Positions 17,941 to 49,240 of a DNA stretch of 53,592 nucleotides are shown piece after piece. Position 1 is the stretch's first letter; each line of letters begins with the position of its first letter. Position numbers and translations under genes: made by a program. The DNA lies in IMG/VR virus record IMGVR_UViG_3300045240_000178, positions 1 to 53,592 of that record; one strand, 5' to 3'. Source of the DNA: a virus. Its lineage: Duplodnaviria; Caudoviricetes. The notes below the pieces were generated by a model. It did no database searches. It was not told the origin of the DNA and worked only from the letters and a program-made list of their open reading frames with translations.

Positions 17941-19584
17941 ATGAGGAATTTTATGCTGAACAATTTCCGCCTTCTCGCGCCCCTCCTGCTGCTGACGGCA
18001 GGCGCTCTCCCGGGGCAGGAAACCATGGACCGCTCGAACGCGGAGAAGACCATTCCGTGGAAGCTCCGCGCTCTCGAACCAGGGCACTGCGCGATCGCCG
18101 AGGTCTACTGGAACACCGTCTCGAATAAACTGCGGCGCTGCATCGCGCCGAACGTCTGGGCGGACGTGGTGACGGCGGATGCATCAGGGAACGTAGTGGT
18201 CGGGGGAACGGTGCTTCCAGCATCGCTTCCCGTCAGCGTGCTCGCCTATGGCGCGATTGGCAATGGCGTCGCCAACGACACGGCGGGGATCGCGGCTGCT
18301 TGCGCGGCGGCCAAGGCTGCGAACAAGGGCCTCTACTTACCCGCTGGCACCTATCTGACCGACCCGATCACCTGCATGACGCAAGCGGGGATGACGCTAT
18401 CCGGCGAGGGGTGGGGATCAATCCTTAAGAGCAGAACGGGCGCTACGGTCATCGAAATCACGGCGGCGAGCCCGACCGATATCACGTTTCGGAATTTCGC
18501 CATCGACGGCAATGCGGGAGCGAGCGGGCATGGCATCTACGTGCACGACAACAGCATTCAGCCGTGGGGCCTCAGTATCGATAACGTCAAGATCTCGAAC
18601 GTGGGCGGACGTTGCGTCTTCATGACGCTGGATTACCAGACGCGCCTCACTGACGTGAGTTGCCAGAGCAATGGCGGCAATGGCATCGAACTGGATAATC
18701 GCGTGGCGGATGTGTTGACCCGCGTGTACGTGCATGGCGTCGGGGCGGGCAAGGCGGGGTTTGTGTTCTATAGCGGCACGCCCGCGCTCATCGCGTGCAA
18801 TGGTCTGGACTCCGTTACGGGCGCGAATTCGGATTGGGGGGTGTTCGGTCAAACCGTGGCGGAAGACGGAGTGCTCAACATCAGCCGCCCGGTATTCATC
18901 GGCTCCAACATCGAACACTTTGGACGCTACGGAATCCGCTTCAAGCAGTCGTCAATGGGCAGTTTTCTCGGCACTTCTTTTAACGTGGATCAGCCGGGCG
19001 TGCAGGCGATCCGATACGAATCGCCCGACGATAGCAGCTATCGGGTGGGAATATTCGACGGCAGTTCGTACATCAACTGCAACACGGGCTGCACGTACGC
19101 CAACAGCGTATCGATCCACGCATCGAGGCTCACTGCCCCGCTCGTGTTTGAGAATGGGACTGACGTGCCGTCGGTGTATGTCGAGGACGTTCCCTATACG
19201 ATTCCTGCTATGCAAAGCGGCTGGAAACAGGCGGCGTACGGCATTTTCAGCCCGTGGTGGTCCCTCGCGTACGTTACCCGCTTACAGACCACTCGTGCGC
19301 TGTCCGACGTCAAGGTGGTCACGTTCTCAGCCACGCCAACCTTCGATCTCTCGCTAGGCGATACGCAGAAGATGACATTGACCGCCAACGTCACGTCGGA
19401 ATCGTTCACCAACAAGGTGGACGGGCAAACCGTCAAAATTTTACTTTGCCAGGATTCAACCGGGAGCCGGACAGTCGTTTGGAGTTCCACGGTTCAAGGC
19501 ACACCGAAAACATTGATCTCGACGGCGAACGCCTGCACCCCGTTTCAGTTCTACGGCGATGGCACTTGGCTCTGGTCGTATTAG
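17941..19584 (+). CDS. Second pectate-lyase-like beta-helix protein with an apparent N-terminal signal peptide
   Basis: SVLAYGAIGNGVANDT and LYLPAGTY motifs; N-terminus FRLLAPLLLLTAGALPGQ. Confidence 0.8.
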   Translation: MRNFMLNNFRLLAPLLLLTAGALPGQETMDRSNAEKTIPWKLRALEPGHCAIAEVYWNTVSNKLRRCIAPNVWADVVTADASGNVVVGGTVLPASLPVSVLAYGAIGNGVANDTAGIAAACAAAKAANKGLYLPAGTYLTDPITCMTQAGMTLSGEGWGSILKSRTGATVIEITAASPTDITFRNFAIDGNAGASGHGIYVHDNSIQPWGLSIDNVKISNVGGRCVFMTLDYQTRLTDVSCQSNGGNGIELDNRVADVLTRVYVHGVGAGKAGFVFYSGTPALIACNGLDSVTGANSDWGVFGQTVAEDGVLNISRPVFIGSNIEHFGRYGIRFKQSSMGSFLGTSFNVDQPGVQAIRYESPDDSSYRVGIFDGSSYINCNTGCTYANSVSIHASRLTAPLVFENGTDVPSVYVEDVPYTIPAMQSGWKQAAYGIFSPWWSLAYVTRLQTTRALSDVKVVTFSATPTFDLSLGDTQKMTLTANVTSESFTNKVDGQTVKILLCQDSTGSRTVVWSSTVQGTPKTLISTANACTPFQFYGDGTWLWSY

Positions 19585-34803: not shown

Positions 34804-35016
34804 CTAGCCCGATGAAGCCTTACGCGCCGGGCGCGCGTTCCCCTCGGGCCACGAGGGAATCTCTGAAACTTTATTAACGGATCTCGCTAGGAAGGCCGGC
34901 GTGCAATAGCGATCCTCCCCAGATTCCGGATCGAATACAGGCACCAGTTCGCCCTTGCGCACCAGCTCGTTGAGCGCGGCGCGCAGATCGCGGTTGTCGT
35001 CGTCGCGATGGGTCAT
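34804..35016 (-). CDS. Hypothetical protein, 70 aa
   Basis: ATGA coupling. Confidence 0.6.
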   Translation of the reverse strand: MTHRDDDNRDLRAALNELVRKGELVPVFDPESGEDRYCTPAFLARSVNKVSEIPSWPEGNARPARKASSG

Positions 35017-35327
35017 GCGTCCACTTCTCCGTCATCCGCCGCGCGCCGGCTCGCGTAGAAATCAAGAAAAGCGACGTACCATCCGCGCCGTTTCACCAAG
35101 TCCCACCAGACCTTGGTAACGAACCATCCGACCACAAACGCCCATCCGCCGATTCCGATGAGCAGCGCGCTGTAACACAGCACGGTCAGCACCCACCCGG
35201 GAACCCACAGACCCCTGGCGGCCACACGGAAAAGCGGGAAGGCACAACCCGCGAGATAGCCCGCCGCAAAGAACAGCACTACAACCGTTCTCAAAGCCCC
35301 GACGTTGAATTCGCGCTTGCGGGTCAT
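35013..35327 (-). CDS. Membrane protein, 104 aa
   Basis: Two to three hydrophobic segments; ATGA coupling. Confidence 0.65.
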   Translation of the reverse strand: MTRKREFNVGALRTVVVLFFAAGYLAGCAFPLFRVAARGLWVPGWVLTVLCYSALLIGIGGWAFVVGWFVTKVWWDLVKRRGWYVAFLDFYASRRAADDGEVDA

Positions 35328-35515
35328 GATTCCTCGCGGCGGCACAACGCCTCGAATCGCACGGCCCACTCCAGTGCATCGGTGGGCAGCTTCTCCATCG
35401 CCTGGGCGATCTCCTCGCGCGTGGCGTGGTTGATGCGCCAGGCGAACTCCTCCACTGACATGCCGGCTTCGGCTGCCTGCCGTCTAATCGCGGCTGCGCA
35501 TTCCTGGGGCGTCAT
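35324..35515 (-). CDS. Hypothetical protein, 63 aa
   Basis: ATGA coupling. Confidence 0.6.
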   Translation of the reverse strand: MTPQECAAAIRRQAAEAGMSVEEFAWRINHATREEIAQAMEKLPTDALEWAVRFEALCRREES

Positions 35516-41459: not shown

Positions 41460-41618
41460 ATGGACCTCGGGAAGGAAGTCCGGTACAACCGGGCCAGGTC
41501 GAAAGAATCCTACGATCCATTCTTCGAGGCAAAGAAATGGCGGCGAAGATTCTTCTGGTTGCTGGCTCTGGCCGTGGTGCTGTTTGTCGTGGTGCTCGTG
41601 CTGGTGTTGCGCGCCTGA
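41460..41618 (+). CDS. Small C-terminally anchored membrane protein, 52 aa
   Basis: MDLGKEVRY...FFWLLALAVVLFVVVLVLVLRA. Confidence 0.55.
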   Translation: MDLGKEVRYNRARSKESYDPFFEAKKWRRRFFWLLALAVVLFVVVLVLVLRA

Positions 41619-43600: not shown

Positions 43601-43740
43601 CCGTTAAAAGAAACGTCGGTTTATTTTAACGGCTGACCGCGGAGTAAAATTTTGCTCTGCTTGAGATGCCGCGCTTTACGCCGGCTCCTTGCGAGTGAAA
43701 GGGACGGAGCCCTCCAGTTCTAAGACCTGGCCGGGCTCCG
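43601..43740 (+). promoter_or_regulatory. Chain of three hairpins upstream of the lysis cassette
   Basis: Stems 43601-43632, 43639-43660 and 43705-43740. Confidence 0.45.
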
Positions 43741-43755
43741 CTTCCAATCAATCGA

Positions 43756-44412
43756 ATGTCATTTCCATTTCCAATCCCTATGGCCCGATCCCGCGCGCGC
43801 TTCGGCGGCGACGAGAAGCCACCGGCCCAGTTCACACTCCGGATGGGTATCATTCTCGGCCTGTTGACCATCGCCGGCGCAATCTGGGGCGCTGGATCCA
43901 AAGACGGATCGCTCCGATATATGGTGCTGGAGGACCACGCATTCATGTTACGGCTCGCCGCGGCCGTAGAAAGCAACGCTGCCGCTACCGGTGTGTTGGC
44001 TGTCGCAGTCGGCACCGTGCAGGGCAATCTCGCCGGACGCACCACCGCCCTGGAAGCGAAGGCCGATAGAAACTGGACCGCCATCCGCAGGCAGGGCACG
44101 CAATCTGAAAAGAACAAGGCCGACATCAGCCACTTCGACACCCGCCAGCAACAGCAGGCGACGCAGCAGACAGTCGATCGAGTCACGGCCTCGGAAGCCA
44201 ACCTGACGCAGAGCAAGCGCGCGGATCAATCGGACAACCGCCAGGCCGCTGCCGCCACCGCTGCCATCACCGCCGAGAGCACGCTGAGCAATCGTTTGGA
44301 TCAGGACCGCCACGTCGCCGCTACGGCATCGCAGGCACTTGAAGTACGGCAGGACAAGGCGGAAGAGCAGCAGGATACCGATCGCGCGGCCGCTAAGCAG
44401 AGGAAGAAATGA
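43756..44412 (+). CDS. Single-TM coiled-coil protein (i-spanin-like topology)
   Basis: N-terminal TM MGIILGLLTIAGAIWG followed by Gln/Ala-rich helices; start 43756 or 43780. Confidence 0.6.
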   Translation: MSFPFPIPMARSRARFGGDEKPPAQFTLRMGIILGLLTIAGAIWGAGSKDGSLRYMVLEDHAFMLRLAAAVESNAAATGVLAVAVGTVQGNLAGRTTALEAKADRNWTAIRRQGTQSEKNKADISHFDTRQQQQATQQTVDRVTASEANLTQSKRADQSDNRQAAAATAAITAESTLSNRLDQDRHVAATASQALEVRQDKAEEQQDTDRAAAKQRKK

Positions 44413-44651
44413 CCCTGCAAGAACGCGTCCACGCCCTATTCGCCGAAGTACAAGCGAAGGGCTGGCCAACCATTTCCGAGAACCTAGATCTTTGCATGGA
44501 GCGTGCCTGCGAGTTTGAAACCCGATTTCGCGCGCTGATTTACGACGAGGAGGAATTAACCAATGGCAGCCGCAATCATCCCGATAGCTTTACCTCTGAT
44601 TCTGACCGAAGTTCCCAAGCTGATCGATCTGATCGTCGGCCTGGTCCATAA
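44409..44651 (+). CDS. Hypothetical protein, 80 aa
   Basis: ATGA coupling; overlaps the next gene. Confidence 0.5.
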   Translation: MTLQERVHALFAEVQAKGWPTISENLDLCMERACEFETRFRALIYDEEELTNGSRNHPDSFTSDSDRSSQADRSDRRPGP

Positions 44652-44940
44652 ACAGGCGCCAGTGGCGGAGGCCTCCGGCGGACCCAACACTGGCCCCGTG
44701 AAATTCGCCGACGTGTTCATAGCCACCATGGAGGATCTGATCAAGGCCCATGCCAAGGGCACGATCCCCGGATTGCCCGACGAGGCAGAAGTGAAGGTGA
44801 TCATCCAGGCCGTGGTGACCAGCATGAAGCTGAGCGGAGTACTCGGAAGCACGAGCGTTCAGAGTCCTGCAGAGCTTCCGTCTACGCAAGGGCCGCTGGT
44901 GTTGACGGCGGGGCAGTCGATCACGATCAGCGTGAAATAA
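44563..44940 (+). CDS. Putative holin (LL-H-like), 125 aa
   Basis: AGGAGG RBS; hydrophobic N-terminus; G..K...V and IQAVV..MK pattern. Confidence 0.5.
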   Translation: MAAAIIPIALPLILTEVPKLIDLIVGLVHKQAPVAEASGGPNTGPVKFADVFIATMEDLIKAHAKGTIPGLPDEAEVKVIIQAVVTSMKLSGVLGSTSVQSPAELPSTQGPLVLTAGQSITISVK

Positions 44941-44942
44941 CC

Positions 44943-45170
44943 ATGGAATCCCTCAACCTCATATTGATCATTCAGCTGACCATCCGTGAGTACATAAACA
45001 GGTCCACGGGACGATTCATCGTCTGCGCAAAGGATACCGGAGCAGTAGCAGGAATGGGCGCGATGACTCTCGCCCAGGCCCACTTCGTCGCCGACGGCTT
45101 GCCCAGCTATGAGATCCGCCCAGTTGGCCAACCCTTGCCCTGGGCGCCGCAACACACGAGTCGGGCATGA
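44943..45170 (+). CDS. Hypothetical protein, 75 aa
   Basis: Fills the gap; ATGA coupling to patatin. Confidence 0.5.
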   Translation: MESLNLILIIQLTIREYINRSTGRFIVCAKDTGAVAGMGAMTLAQAHFVADGLPSYEIRPVGQPLPWAPQHTSRA

Positions 45171-46084
45171 CGAAGAAAATCCTATCGATTCAAGGAGGGG
45201 GGATCCGCGGAATCATCCCCGCGTGCGCCTTGGTTGCCCTGGAAGCCCAGACTGGCAAGCTCGCCCGCGAATCCTTTGACTTCTGCGGTGGATCCAGCAC
45301 CGGCGCGCTGCTCACCGCGGCGATCGCGGCAGGAGTTCCAGCGCAGCAATCGCTTGACGTCTACCTGCAGCACGGCCGCCAGATCTTTTCGCCCACCAAC
45401 GACGTGGAGCGGAAGGTCAACCTGGTCGCGCGCGGCAGGCAGTTCGATGCGAAAACGCTCTACCAGGTGGTGAAGGACACGCTCGGCACGGCCGCAGTGT
45501 GGACGATCAACGACAGCCCCATCAATATCCTGCTCACCGCGGTCGACCAGCTCGGCGACACGATGTATTTCACCCGGGATGGATCCACGAACGCCGGCAA
45601 GTTCGGCCAATTTGGACTGCTCGATGCGGCCGTTGCATCGGCATGCGCCACCACATATCACGATCCCTGGATGGTTCGACGTCTCGGATATTGTGCTGAT
45701 GGAGGATGCGGAGGCGTGGCGGATCCGGTCTACCAGGTCTGCGTCGAAGCCTTCACCGGCGCCAAATGCTACGGCTCGATCGACCCGGCGGCCGCGGCCG
45801 TGATCTCGCTCGGTACCGGATTCTTCAAACCCACCACGATGCCCCAACCTCCCGGCAATCTGCTCCAGCGGATTCAGTGGGTGACTGGCGCGCTCGTTGG
45901 ATCGAGCAAAACGATCGCGGCGCAATCGGTCGAACGGCATTGGCCGAACGTTCTGCGGGTGTTGAACGCGGCTCTGCCCAACGATATCGATGAAGCGGAC
46001 GTGGACGCGATCCCAATGTTGCTCCACATTGGCCAGGCCGCGGCGGCGAAGATCGACTGGCGAACGATTCTGGGGCTGGCGTGA
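45167..46084 (+). CDS. Patatin-like phospholipase, 305 aa
   Basis: GGGIRG oxyanion loop, GSSTG nucleophile elbow and DGG catalytic Asp. Confidence 0.92.
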   Translation: MTKKILSIQGGGIRGIIPACALVALEAQTGKLARESFDFCGGSSTGALLTAAIAAGVPAQQSLDVYLQHGRQIFSPTNDVERKVNLVARGRQFDAKTLYQVVKDTLGTAAVWTINDSPINILLTAVDQLGDTMYFTRDGSTNAGKFGQFGLLDAAVASACATTYHDPWMVRRLGYCADGGCGGVADPVYQVCVEAFTGAKCYGSIDPAAAAVISLGTGFFKPTTMPQPPGNLLQRIQWVTGALVGSSKTIAAQSVERHWPNVLRVLNAALPNDIDEADVDAIPMLLHIGQAAAAKIDWRTILGLA

Positions 46085-46521
46085 TGATCCGCAGAACCTC
46101 ACCCGCCGGCATCGACGTGATGAAGGTCTTCGAAGGTTGCAGGCTCGTAGCCTATCGGGACGCGTCGCCGGAACGTATCTGGACGATCGGCCGGGGTCAT
46201 ACCGGCGCCGGCGTTACCCAAGGCCTGCGAATCGACCAGGTGCGCGCCGATCAACTGTTCGCCTGCGATCTCCTGAGTTTCGAGACGGCCGTCTGCAGCG
46301 CGGTTCACGTGGAGCTGACTCAAGGCCAATTCGACGCGTTGGTCTCCTTCGCGTACAACTGCAAAGGTTGGCGGACGTCCGATCTGATTCGGCTCGTGAA
46401 TGCGCGCGACTTCAACGGCGCCGCAAACGAGTTTCCAAAATGGTGTCATGCCGGCGCCGAAATACTTCCCGGCCTGGTCACCAGGCGCGCGGCCGAGCAG
46501 AAACTCTTCAGCGCAGTATAG
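46081..46521 (+). CDS. Endolysin, GH24 phage lysozyme
   Basis: FEGCRLVAYRD....WTIG.GHT, QFDALVSFAYN and LPGLVTRR motifs. Confidence 0.95.
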   Translation: MMIRRTSPAGIDVMKVFEGCRLVAYRDASPERIWTIGRGHTGAGVTQGLRIDQVRADQLFACDLLSFETAVCSAVHVELTQGQFDALVSFAYNCKGWRTSDLIRLVNARDFNGAANEFPKWCHAGAEILPGLVTRRAAEQKLFSAV

Positions 46522-46536
46522 AATCGAATCCCCAAT

Positions 46537-47124
46537 ATGAGCATCCGAGCAGCAATCTACGCGCGCGTATCGACCAAGATCCAGGATTACGAACTGCAGC
46601 TCACCGAGTTGCGCTCCTACGCCGCCCGCGCCGGCTGGGAAATCGTGGAGTACGTGGAGAAGGCATCGAGCGTCAAGAAACGGCCGGTGTTCGATCGCAT
46701 GCTCGCCGACGCCAAGCTCCGGAAGTTCGATGCAGTGCTGGTCTGGAAACTGGACCGCTTTGCGCGCTCCATCTCCCAACTGGTCGAGAACGTTCGCCTG
46801 TTCGATTCGCTCGAAATCCGTTTCGTATGCGTGACCCAGGGGATCGACACACACCTGCAGAATGCCGGCGGCCGGATGTTCATGCAGATCCTCGGGGTCT
46901 TTGCTGAGTTCGAGCGCAACCTGATCGTGGAGCGGGTGACCGCCGGGGTGGCCGAAGCCCAGAAGAGGGGAGTCCACTGCGGCCGCAAGCCGCGGATCTT
47001 CAAGCGCGACGAGGCCATGCGGATGCGGAGACTGGGGATGAGCTTCCGAAAAATCGCGGTCGCCCTGGGCGTTCCGACCATGACGATCGTCGATGCGGTG
47101 AAGCTGTACGGAAAGCCTTCCTAG
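46537..47124 (+). CDS. Small serine recombinase (resolvase/invertase) with C-terminal HTH, 195 aa
   Basis: YARVST, LDRFARS, FAEFER..I.ER..AG and GRKP motifs. Confidence 0.95.
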   Translation: MSIRAAIYARVSTKIQDYELQLTELRSYAARAGWEIVEYVEKASSVKKRPVFDRMLADAKLRKFDAVLVWKLDRFARSISQLVENVRLFDSLEIRFVCVTQGIDTHLQNAGGRMFMQILGVFAEFERNLIVERVTAGVAEAQKRGVHCGRKPRIFKRDEAMRMRRLGMSFRKIAVALGVPTMTIVDAVKLYGKPS

Positions 47125-47204
47125 TTTCTCGGGAATCGGTGACGCAAGGAGTAGACTTGCGGGCGCCGAAATGGCAGTACGAAACCAATTGGTTGGCGTA
47201 CGTT
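47105..47204. promoter_or_regulatory. Putative res-type recombination site
   Basis: TGTACGGAAA at 47105 and GTACG-A-AACCAATTGGTT-GG-CGTAC at 47177-47201 (12-bp perfect core palindrome). Confidence 0.5.
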
Positions 47205-47310: not shown

Positions 47311-47784
47311 ATGCCCCGATTCGGCCCCAAGATTACTGCTTTTCTGCGCGCCATCGAAGTGATGCCAAATGTCACCCGGGCGGCGAAGGCGGCCAGGATC
47401 AACAAGTCCCAGCACTACGCGAAGCTGAACTCGAGTCTGGAGTACCGCGCCGCCTTCGACGCCTGTATGGCGATCGGCTGCGATGCCATGAGCGACGTCG
47501 CGATCGAGCGGGCCCAGATCGGCTGGGACGAACCCGTCGTATATAAGGGGCAGCTCTCCTACCCGGAGATCTGGAGCGACGAGCTGGGATATATGGTCCC
47601 CGACCGAACCCAGCAACCGTTCAGCGTCCGCAAGATCGACAACAACCTCCTGCAGTTCGTGCTTCGCAACCGCCATCCCGATTACCGGGAGCAGCGCGAA
47701 GAGCGCAACCCCGAAGCCGCCACGGCGCCGCCGCTGGTGATTCAGACCTACACCGATGATCCGCCTGAAAAGATTGAAGCCTGA
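47311..47784 (+). CDS. terS: Terminase small subunit
   Basis: N-terminal HTH and ERA..GWDEPVVYKG...RK.D..LL.F.L motif; upstream of TerL. Confidence 0.8.
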   Translation: MPRFGPKITAFLRAIEVMPNVTRAAKAARINKSQHYAKLNSSLEYRAAFDACMAIGCDAMSDVAIERAQIGWDEPVVYKGQLSYPEIWSDELGYMVPDRTQQPFSVRKIDNNLLQFVLRNRHPDYREQREERNPEAATAPPLVIQTYTDDPPEKIEA

Positions 47785-47929: not shown

Positions 47930-49240
47930 ATGATCCGCCTCAGCAAACCGCAGTCCCGTATTTTTTTGTCTCCAGCGCGGTTCCGTGTTGTGGTTGCCGG
48001 CAGGCGTTTCGGCAAGACGTACCTGTCGATCCCCGAGCTGGTTCGCAAGGTCTGGAACCGGCCGAAGTCGCTCGCCTGGTATCTGGCACCGACATATCGC
48101 CAGGCGAAGCAGATCGCGTGGCGCGAACTGAAAGAGACCGGCGGGCCCTACTTGGCCGAGAAGCCCAACGAGACGGATCTGTCGGTCGAACTGATCGGCG
48201 GCGGCCGGATCGCGCTCCGCGGCGCGGCGAACTACGACGCCTTGCGCGGACCGGGCCTCGACTTCGCGGTGATGGACGAATACGCCGACATGAATCCGGT
48301 GGTGTGGACGGAGATCATCCGCCCCATGCTGTCCGACCGGATGGGTTCGGCTCTCTTCATCGGCACACCGAAGGGCATGAACCACTTCTACGAACTGCAC
48401 CAGTCGGCAGCCACGATGCCAGATTGGGCGGCGTTTCAGTACACCACGCTCGATGGCGGGCGCGTTTCGGCCGCGGAGCTCGAATCCGCGCGCCAGGACA
48501 TGGATGAGAAGACGTTCCGCCAGGAGTACATGGGCGGCTTCGAGAACTTTGCCGGCCGCGCCTACTTCGCCTTCAACCGCGGCGCCAATCTGCACGCAGC
48601 CAACTATCAGCCGCGCCTGCAGCTCTGCTGGTCGCTTGATTTCAACGTGAACCCGATGTCCAGCGTGATCTGCCAGCTCGAAGACACCACCACGCGCGAC
48701 CAGGCCATGATCGGCAAGCGATCCTCCCTCGTGCACGTGCTCGATGAGATCGTGCTGCCCAATTCCAACACCCAGGAGGCTTGCGAGGAATTCGCCAGGC
48801 GCGTGCAACCCTGGATCGCGCGGCAAGGGCAAGTTTCGCTGAAGCTATACGGCGATGCCGCCGGCAGCGCGCGCTCGACCGCGGGCAAGTCGGACTACCA
48901 GATCATCAAGGAATTCTTCCGCCGGACGCCCGAGTTCCAGGTGAGCTACCACGTGCCGCTGGCCAATCCCGCGGTGCGCGATCGCGTGAACGCGATGAAT
49001 TCGAAGCTGCTGAACGCCGCGGGTGTGGTGGGGCTGTTAGTGGATCCGCGATGCAAAAGATTGACGAAGGATCTGGAGCAGGTCGCGTGGAAAAGCGATT
49101 CGAACGGCAACATGACTGGCGATATCGACAAGAGTAACGCGGAGCTGACGCATATCTCGGACGCGCTCGGCTACTTGATTGAGAGTGAGTTCGGATTGCG
49201 GCAGGCCGGCGGGCCGCGGAGCGGGAGTATCGCAGCATGA
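47930..49240 (+). CDS. terL: Terminase large subunit
   Basis: Walker A AGRRFGKT, Walker B VMDE, IGTPKG, nuclease LDFN and HISDALGY. Confidence 0.97.
   Translation: MIRLSKPQSRIFLSPARFRVVVAGRRFGKTYLSIPELVRKVWNRPKSLAWYLAPTYRQAKQIAWRELKETGGPYLAEKPNETDLSVELIGGGRIALRGAANYDALRGPGLDFAVMDEYADMNPVVWTEIIRPMLSDRMGSALFIGTPKGMNHFYELHQSAATMPDWAAFQYTTLDGGRVSAAELESARQDMDEKTFRQEYMGGFENFAGRAYFAFNRGANLHAANYQPRLQLCWSLDFNVNPMSSVICQLEDTTTRDQAMIGKRSSLVHVLDEIVLPNSNTQEACEEFARRVQPWIARQGQVSLKLYGDAAGSARSTAGKSDYQIIKEFFRRTPEFQVSYHVPLANPAVRDRVNAMNSKLLNAAGVVGLLVDPRCKRLTKDLEQVAWKSDSNGNMTGDIDKSNAELTHISDALGYLIESEFGLRQAGGPRSGSIAA

Follow-up and report, generated by a model that had tools for sequence, protein, structure and literature searches.

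What does a patatin-like phospholipase do when its gene overlaps that of the endolysin of a tailed phage? The question is raised by the IMG/VR virus record IMGVR_UViG_3300045240_000178, analysed here over the whole of its 53,592 nucleotides (the window), in which positions 43756-46521 of the + strand carry six open reading frames (ORFs), the last two of them encoding a patatin and a GH24 endolysin. The best explanation of the window is that it represents a temperate-type tailed phage and that this region is its lysis cassette, situated at the head of the late genes. Within the cassette, the reading that we favour, to which we give somewhat less than an even chance, is that the patatin is host-derived and serves the phage as an accessory membrane-degrading lysis enzyme. 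In diderm bacteria the outer-membrane step of lysis is, to our knowledge, the task of spanins or, in rare cases, of a cationic disruptin, and a lipolytic enzyme is established for it solely in the mycobacteriophages (LysB). Full-text literature searches for a patatin coupled to an endolysin led only to papers on the Wolbachia phage WO. What is known is therefore an established LysB and a proposed WO patatin, and what is new is a patatin coupled to a canonical endolysin.

The gene order given in an initial annotation of this DNA, made from the sequence without database searches, was confirmed. A single-transmembrane (TM) protein of 218 amino acids (aa; 43756-44412) is followed by an 80-aa ORF (44409-44651), a 125-aa protein with a hydrophobic N-terminus (TM125; 44563-44940), a 75-aa ORF (44943-45170), the 305-aa patatin-like phospholipase (45167-46084; PF01734) and the 146-aa GH24 endolysin (46081-46521; PF00959), all on the + strand. 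The overlapping start and stop codons on both sides of the patatin gene were likewise found as described: its start lies in an ATGA at 45167-45170 that overlaps the stop of the 75-aa ORF, and its TGA stop is overlapped by both possible starts of the endolysin in the GTGATG at 46081-46086 (GTG at 46081, ATG at 46084). The + strand showed no terminator-like site from 43.7 to 47.1 kb, and the third-position GC content (GC3) of the patatin gene is 0.75, compared with 0.70-0.84 for its neighbours. As the genes for both terminase subunits lie directly downstream, the cassette occupies a lambda-like position, comparable to that of lambda S-R-Rz, and its description as a tightly packed late-operon lysis cassette is supported.

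The arrangement was also recovered from an independent soil sequencing run of another study (X2). One of its contigs corresponds to positions 45655-46575 with 2 differences in 921 bases, and holds the 3' part of the patatin gene, the junction, the entire GH24 gene and the start of the downstream resolvase, while a second X2 contig joins the 125-aa gene to the patatin. Since contigs of an independent run span it, the arrangement is real and not an assembly artefact. Of the 15 listed differences inside the patatin gene between X2 and the window, 12 fall at codon position 3, from which it follows that the patatin is under purifying selection in the phage lineage.

The patatin matched PF01734 over residues 6-181 with 50.9 bits (E 2.9e-13; cut-off 27.7), and with 51.9 bits in a six-frame search. 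Patatins are marked by an oxyanion loop GGGxRG, a nucleophile elbow GxSxG and an aspartate in a DG[GA] motif. All three are present, as GGGIRG (10-15), G42-S-S44-T45-G46 and D178-G179-G180, and were invariant in 28 aligned members of the family, so that the intact Ser-Asp dyad noted initially can now be assigned to Ser44 and Asp178. Judged by these motifs, the enzyme is predicted to be catalytically intact.

The neighbouring endolysin was equally clear, and the GH24 lysozyme assignment held: PF00959 was matched with 133 bits (E 9.5e-39) across model positions 2-125 of 125, and the endolysin family phrog_7 with E 4.8e-47. The GH24 catalytic Glu/Asp/Thr pattern lies near the N-terminus, and it can be read in the translation as E18, D27 and T35. 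The endolysin carries no N-terminal hydrophobic signal-arrest-release (SAR) segment, and the patatin has neither a signal peptide nor a TM segment; the patatin would accordingly need a holin to leave the cytoplasm, as presumably would the endolysin.

That no o-spanin was visible by eye was borne out by more systematic searches. Prediction of lipoproteins on all frames was carried out as a heuristic regular-expression scan, rather than with SignalP or LipoP, and detected no lipobox ORF between 38 and 49 kb in six frames when all potential start codons, rare ones among them, were allowed. When the whole window was searched in six frames with the Rz (PF03245), Rz1 (PF06085) and DUF2514 (PF10721) models, nothing was returned at E <= 1, and no canonical spanin pair was found in the window. 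Two individual candidates were considered and rejected. An embedded, proline-rich ORF in the +1 frame (43991-44206) has no signal and meets a stop 8 codons upstream. The protein encoded at 35013-35369 on the - strand has a lipobox (LAGC), the single good one in any called gene of the window; its second TM segment begins about 10 residues after the cysteine and its gene lies in the early arm, and it may be a membrane protein of the superinfection-exclusion type.

A holin is typically a small protein whose gene neighbours that of the endolysin; it has one or more TM segments and carries charge at its C-terminus. Measured against this description, the 125-aa protein has one N-terminal hydrophobic segment but not the charged end, whereas the 218-aa protein has both but is large. 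The N-terminus of the latter is short and basic. Its single hydrophobic segment spans residues 25-48, in agreement with the TM segment originally noted, and the C-terminal part, a polar domain of about 170 aa, has many Q, A, D and R residues and ends in KQRKK; the isoelectric point (pI) of the protein is 9.7. Its true start may be the ATG at 43780, and the corresponding ESM Atlas entry begins at residue 9; the Atlas models the protein as a long helix and has viral hypothetical proteins of 159-178 aa in the clusters nearest to it. The protein matched nothing in Pfam, PHROG, NCBIfam or PADLOC, and two homologues were found (63% and 59% identity), one of them on a 3249-bp contig; a 78%-identical homologue of the 125-aa protein also lies on a 3249-bp contig. 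In an N-in orientation, a single TM segment followed by a long helix is what would be expected of an i-spanin, although, as stated above, neither PF03245 nor PF10721 was matched in the window. With this build, the 218-aa protein is a candidate for an i-spanin-like protein or for a holin whose periplasmic domain is large.

The 125-aa protein had been labelled an LL-H-like holin, an identification that did not survive the searches: no Pfam family was matched at E <= 10, nor any PHROG, NCBIfam or PADLOC family. Its only lead to PF09682 was a weak one from the Atlas (features 0.81; structure TM score 0.52/0.45), with PF09682 assigned to 23% of the members of the features cluster and 66% of those of the structure cluster, and alignment (hhalign) of a 25-sequence profile of the family with one acidobacterial ORF above the PF09682 cut-off gave a probability of 0.1. 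The gene has a strong GAGGAGGA ribosome-binding site ahead of its start, and the protein has a hydrophobic or amphipathic N-terminal segment (2-28), interrupted by E16, K19 and D22, and an uncharged C-terminus. Among its 53 homologues (68-157 aa) none carries a Pfam family or a functional name, and a tblastn search of deposited phage records gave no match at E <= 1. A homologue lies immediately upstream of the patatin in viral locus L004, ending 9-12 nt before it, and pairs of a 125-aa homologue and a patatin were found on contigs of equal size (P0122/P0001, 2010 bp; P0140/P0098, 10407 bp), which suggests that the gene precedes the patatin there too. The family also occurs without a patatin, in five viral loci (L205-L209), and its neighbours in L004 and L205-L207 had no informative Pfam family. 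The 125-aa protein is thus a candidate holin or membrane anchor, and may be an anchor rather than a classical holin.

The two remaining small ORFs are less certain members of the cassette. The 80-aa ORF starts with an ATG that shares an ATGA with the stop of the 218-aa gene, and its last 89 nt lie inside the next gene; it has no TM segment, no signal and no Pfam, PHROG, NCBIfam or PADLOC family, and whether it is a real gene is uncertain. The 75-aa ORF matched PHROG 14307 weakly (E 0.0038) and is not conserved, 184 nt being replaced by 126 other letters in the X2 relative and the ORF being absent in L004; it may be either a spacer that varies or a small gene particular to its lineage. Earlier in the same gene block, a 52-aa ORF (41460-41618, +) has a charged N-terminus, a very hydrophobic stretch at residues 27-52 and no family, and is a possible holin, antiholin or membrane regulator.

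Taken together, this anatomy suggests that the lipase helps to break the host membranes at lysis, and a phospholipase-based lysis step is, from the sequence, a reasonable hypothesis. Patatin and endolysin would be made together late in infection and would accumulate in the cytoplasm until the 218-aa protein, the 125-aa protein or both triggered as the holin. Both enzymes would then reach the envelope, where the endolysin would cut the murein and the phospholipase would hydrolyse glycerophospholipids, both those of the inner membrane and those in the outer membrane's inner leaflet. Such hydrolysis would either speed lysis or supply its last, outer-membrane step, as spanins, LysB and disruptins do elsewhere. 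We infer the timing, the substrate, the way in which the envelope is reached and any replacement of spanins.

Given that patatins also act as effectors of the cyclic-oligonucleotide-based antiphage signalling system (CBASS), an initial proposal was that the enzyme might be a domesticated immune effector, with lysis timing gated by nucleotides through a sponge-like gene in the same late arm. The best NCBIfam match was indeed NF041079 (CBASS_lipase; E 1.8e-26), but its 93.2 bits lie far under the equivalog cut-off of 200. The PADLOC models of CBASS phospholipase effectors, for which PADLOC gives no cut-off, scored 116.5 and 103.1 bits against the 50.9 bits of the generic Pfam model, which places the patatin in the compact, CapV-like end of its family. 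A profile of the family matched CapV (8zr9) with 100.5 bits and the plant patatin-17 (1oxw) with 96.3 bits, and the single sequence matched them with 50.5 and 55.3 bits, respectively, so that the protein is as near to plant patatin as to CapV. The catalytic R21, S58 and D192 of AbCapV (PDB 8zr9) align with R14, S44 and D178 of the phage patatin. According to the AbCapV study, five contacts with cyclic GMP-AMP (cGAMP) were found essential by mutagenesis, namely F147, K149, D159, E207 and R279, and the membrane-binding surface of CapV is strongly basic (PMC12480259). In phmmer and hmmsearch alignments to 8zr9, F147 corresponds to Y134 (aromatic kept) and E207 to E194 (kept, and nearly invariant in the family), whereas K149 is replaced by T136 (with R137 adjacent) and D159 by F146, and R279 lies outside the aligned part; two of the four alignable contacts are thus kept, with an uncertain alignment of the loops. 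The pI of the cassette patatin is 6.4 and the median for its family 5.1. No SMODS cyclase was detected in the window at E <= 0.1 and no Tad2-like sponge was matched there; the late-arm ORFs that were scanned matched no family at all, and no particular gene had been named as the sponge. Nucleotide gating thus found no footing in the window.

The distribution of the family pointed in a different direction from an immune origin. At least 261 relatives of the patatin are present in a collection of 5.8 billion proteins, and the family was found in 30 of 301 sampled Bryobacterales genomes (the sample being drawn from the order that holds the Bryobacteraceae metagenome-assembled genome (MAG) of locus L045), with a best identity of 59%. 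This best GTDB relative is flanked by sigma/anti-sigma-like and trmFO/xerC-like genes. The nearest relatives for which a gene context was available are chromosomal Acidobacteriota genes adjoining housekeeping genes. At 70 loci, the 110 nearest neighbours (nearest upstream or downstream ORF within 1.2 kb passing a GC3 filter, with the duplicate L152 dropped) were housekeeping genes, including DnaJ (7), MFS (5) and B12-binding (4) proteins among others, and SMODS was not among the top 25 of the 90 families represented. A single SMODS neighbour among the other 65 families is addressed by a search of 21 family-bearing Bryobacterales genomes, in which no SMODS cyclase lay on the contig of the patatin (0/21); 16 had none at all and 5 had one elsewhere. 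In a FastTree phylogeny of 256 patatin rows, the window falls in a starred clade of 18 rows, consisting of protein-database entries only, which is nested in a starred clade of 94 rows with 2 viral and 7 metagenome rows; several long-branch warnings were raised, and no donor or direction of transfer is claimed. The 17 protein-database entries most similar to the patatin (P0001 to about P0018) have 62-96% identity to it. The gene thus belongs to a chromosomal patatin family of the host lineage, an orphan one of patchy occurrence, from which, rather than from a CBASS operon, it was most likely acquired; a CBASS origin, and with it the notion of a domesticated effector, is not supported.

The linkage of patatins with lysis genes was then assessed in other genomes. 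The idea of a general link did not stand, whereas recurrence in separate lineages did. The patatin of viral locus L004 (58% identity) directly follows a 125-aa homologue. In the Bryobacteraceae MAG locus L054 (= L283; 6600-8792) and the metagenome contig L155 (165-2237), a patatin of 45% identity forms a compact set with a signal-peptide protein of 182 aa, a TM protein of 64 aa and a GH24 of 43-45% identity. The genes around these two sets look cellular, and within about 7 kb none encodes a phage structural protein; the sets may represent a prophage remnant or a domesticated autolysis module. In two IMG/VR prophages of about 35% G+C (L032:4211-7023 and L033:4189-7316), a 127-aa lipoprotein and a secreted protein of about 170 aa are followed by an M15 peptidase (PHROG endolysin, E 4e-30) that directly precedes a distant patatin of 345-363 aa, with a 76-aa two-TM ORF after the patatin in L033; a weaker M15 match lies downstream of the patatin in L040. 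In phage WO, the order is tail genes, ankyrin protein, small protein and patatin.

Several observations weigh against a role of the patatin in lysis. The role is deduced from the position of the gene, and late-operon cargo genes such as that of Shiga toxin (Stx) also adjoin lysis genes. Most members of the family are chromosomal, near dnaJ and transporter genes, which implies a cellular role apart from phage lysis. Another cassette protein was found near the patatin in only 5 of 203 fetched patatin loci, and in none of the 73 viral loci with the most similar GH24 was there a patatin within 5 kb; these IMG/VR loci (GH24 at 34-47% identity) had no further protein in common with the window. In the nearest viral relatives, the patatin gene precedes a Mu-type portal (L002/L003) or is flanked by helicase and primase genes (L007). 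The neighbours of these and two further viral patatins (a Mu-type portal and DUF6527 in L002, DnaB/primase and a weak PEP-CTERM match in L007, a 1,891-aa DUF4815 protein in L005, CHAT and HNH in L008) included no endolysin. Among 150 neighbour ORFs at 28 of 43 IMG/VR patatin loci, endolysin-type M15 peptidases and SMODS cyclases occurred three times each; ORFs were counted if they measured 100-480 aa and lay no more than 3 kb from the match, longer ORFs being left out together with six loci with identical matches, L010 (sole ORF too long), L042 and the near-duplicates L015, L017, L028, L034, L036, L043 and L044. DncV-like and AGS-C domains were also seen near patatins on viral contigs (loci among L012-L041). 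With regard to spanins, the negative result comes from a record that is about 81% complete, so that about a fifth may be missing, and from a lipobox scan that is heuristic. As spanins are diverse and many phages of diderm bacteria have no recognisable one, their absence is weak evidence, and the i-spanin-like topology of the 218-aa protein may indicate an unrecognised spanin partner.

These points leave room for other explanations. The patatin could be cargo (a moron), that is, a host-derived lipase made in bulk in the late operon and freed at burst to act on competitors, predators or soil lipids, or one that serves the lysogen, the model being the Shiga toxin genes that sit beside lambdoid lysis genes. 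We regard this as unlikely, although it would account for a family that is mainly chromosomal and patchy, set in varied housekeeping contexts and present outside lysis modules in L002/L003 and L007, and for a patatin whose sole way out, in the absence of an export signal, would be lysis; pathogen patatins, moreover, act on foreign membranes, as stated in PMC9203015. The overlaps on both sides and the neighbour-like GC3 argue against a recent, self-contained moron, the gene showed neither a promoter-like nor a terminator-like site of its own, and adjacency to an endolysin recurs in unrelated lineages. It is also improbable, in our estimation, that the enzyme works at the inner membrane, as a permeabiliser that is independent of the holin or assists it, or as a timing factor, with the outer step left to an unrecognised factor such as the 218-aa protein and a non-canonical partner. 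A cytoplasmic patatin would reach the inner leaflet of the inner membrane directly, CapV kills from inside the cell (PMC12480259), a membrane-associated 125-aa protein is repeatedly paired with the patatin, and the modelled 218-aa protein would have the topology of an i-spanin (N-in, a single TM segment and a long helix). Unregulated activity in the cytoplasm would, however, kill the cell before assembly ended, and a regulator is not apparent; no frame yielded a lipoprotein that could partner the 218-aa protein, and the pI values of the patatin and its family contrast with the strongly basic surface described for CapV.

A defensive function, in which an orphan, CapV-like abortive-infection effector would be gated by a cyclic nucleotide from the host or from the trigger of a superinfecting phage, appears very improbable. 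It draws on the PADLOC scores, on CBASS_lipase as the best NCBIfam match, on the agreement of Y134 and E194 with F147 and E207 of AbCapV, and on the three SMODS cyclases among the 150 neighbour ORFs, which indicate that some viral or prophage contigs carry whole CBASS operons that include a patatin of the CapV type. Set against these are the score far under the equivalog cut-off, the equal closeness of plant patatin, the loss of K149 and D159 with R279 outside the alignable part, and the lack of a SMODS cyclase or Tad2-like sponge in the window and of a SMODS cyclase on the patatin's contig in the 21 genomes; in addition, the gene's setting is a late lysis operon rather than a region of immunity genes or morons. 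An accessory membrane-degrading lysis enzyme of host origin is thus the reading we retain. Its most far-reaching form is possible but doubtful: a patatin phospholipase A would be the outer-membrane lysis effector of a phage of a free-living diderm, leaving the cytoplasm with the endolysin through holin lesions, acting independently of spanins and disruptins as a Gram-negative counterpart of LysB, and recruited separately from cellular patatins in the Acidobacteriota, low-GC prophage and WO lineages.

The record is a whole IMG/VR virus entry of the linear class, with a G+C content of about 59-66%, no tRNAs and zero Rfam families at gathering score anywhere. A simple gene call divides it into three blocks: packaging, head and tail genes on the + strand (47.3-53.3 kb and 0-19.6 kb), a block on the - strand that includes a XerC-like recombinase (20.5-39.5 kb), and a + strand block that starts at 40.9 kb, runs into the terminase genes and has the lysis cassette at its end. 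The small (terS, 47311-47784, +) and large (terL, 47930-49240, +) terminase subunits were identified by Pfam and PHROG matches. Between the endolysin and terS lies a gene for a 195-aa small serine recombinase of the resolvase/invertase type (46537-47124, +; PF00239, E 3.3e-41; phrog_125, DNA invertase), which begins 15 nt past the endolysin and is given as context, not claimed as a lysis gene. Its presence raised the idea of an invertible segment around the cassette, which was set aside as no convincing inverted repeats were found between 39.5 and 48 kb. The tail genes end with a gene for a 547-aa protein (17941-19584, +), probably a tail-spike depolymerase, whose N-terminus is signal-like and which contains a pectate-lyase/right-handed beta-helix domain.

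The host is probably a member of the Bryobacterales (Acidobacteriota), bacteria with two membranes, since relatives of TerL occur in that order and the nearest named relatives of the patatin, among the matches listed, come from MAGs of Bryobacteraceae and other Acidobacteriota. TerL relatives were present in 223 of the 301 sampled genomes, about 25 places having 46-59% identity. Most of the 223 carry a single TerL copy of about 35-41% identity, a pattern that looks like a conserved domesticated prophage or an element resembling a gene transfer agent rather than ordinary prophages. In 12 Bryobacterales prophage regions with a TerL of 46-51% identity, TerL alone was shared within 12 kb upstream, and PF00959 was found in 2 of these 12 genomes, distant from the TerL sites. 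A blastn search of positions 43700-47200 against 50,697 deposited phage records gave zero matches, and single-protein scans of IMG/VR with the patatin and the 218-aa protein as queries found nothing.

With its five or six genes, the cassette is compact enough for a direct test of the idea of lysis by lipase, and it offers a clear case of a phage taking a lipase of a host family into its late operon. It also illustrates how easily a patatin is mis-filed as a CBASS effector from the names of hidden Markov models alone.

Compared with known systems, the patatin occupies the same slot in the cassette as the spanins and disruptins. Spanins (Rz/Rz1, or the gp11-type u-spanin) act by membrane fusion and the disruptin of phiKT (gp28) is a cationic peptide, both providing the third, outer-membrane function of lysis, whereas the patatin would act by catalysis. 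The LysB of mycobacteriophages is a signal-less lipolytic enzyme encoded beside the endolysin and considered to reach the envelope once the holin has acted, there detaching or destroying the outer lipid layer; it is a mycolylarabinogalactan esterase of cutinase/esterase fold from phages that infect mycolata. By its proposed function the patatin would be analogous, as a signal-less lipase encoded beside the endolysin in a lysis cassette, but the likeness is functional only, as the window protein has the patatin fold and would act on the glycerophospholipids of a classical outer membrane. With CapV (about 300-360 aa) it shares a compact patatin without a separate sensor domain, and its best specific models are those of CBASS lipases. 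CapV destroys membranes from inside the cell (PMC12480259); unlike it, the phage patatin has no cyclase partner in the window or beside its relatives, is near-neutral to acidic and is encoded in a late operon. The closest precedent is phage WO, for which Bordenstein & Bordenstein (2022, PMC9203015) propose a patatin-based lytic cassette, and the occurrence of a patatin in WO, noted at the outset, was confirmed: in the 50,697 phage records, the patatin matched WO solely (5 records, 27.5-32.6% identity over 55-56% of the query). In both phages a patatin of about 300 aa is encoded near a small, single-TM, holin-like protein, the WO module being proposed to serve exit through membranes, and in both the role in lysis is a proposal. 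The WO cassette, as described there, lies after the tail genes, with an ankyrin protein and in some cases a PLD nuclease among its members, whereas the present one precedes the terminase; WO infects an obligate intracellular alphaproteobacterium and the window phage, probably, free-living soil Acidobacteriota. In WO, where by the same account there is neither an endolysin nor a detected peptidoglycan target, the patatin is proposed as a replacement for the endolysin (PMC9203015), whereas in the window it is coupled to a GH24 endolysin.

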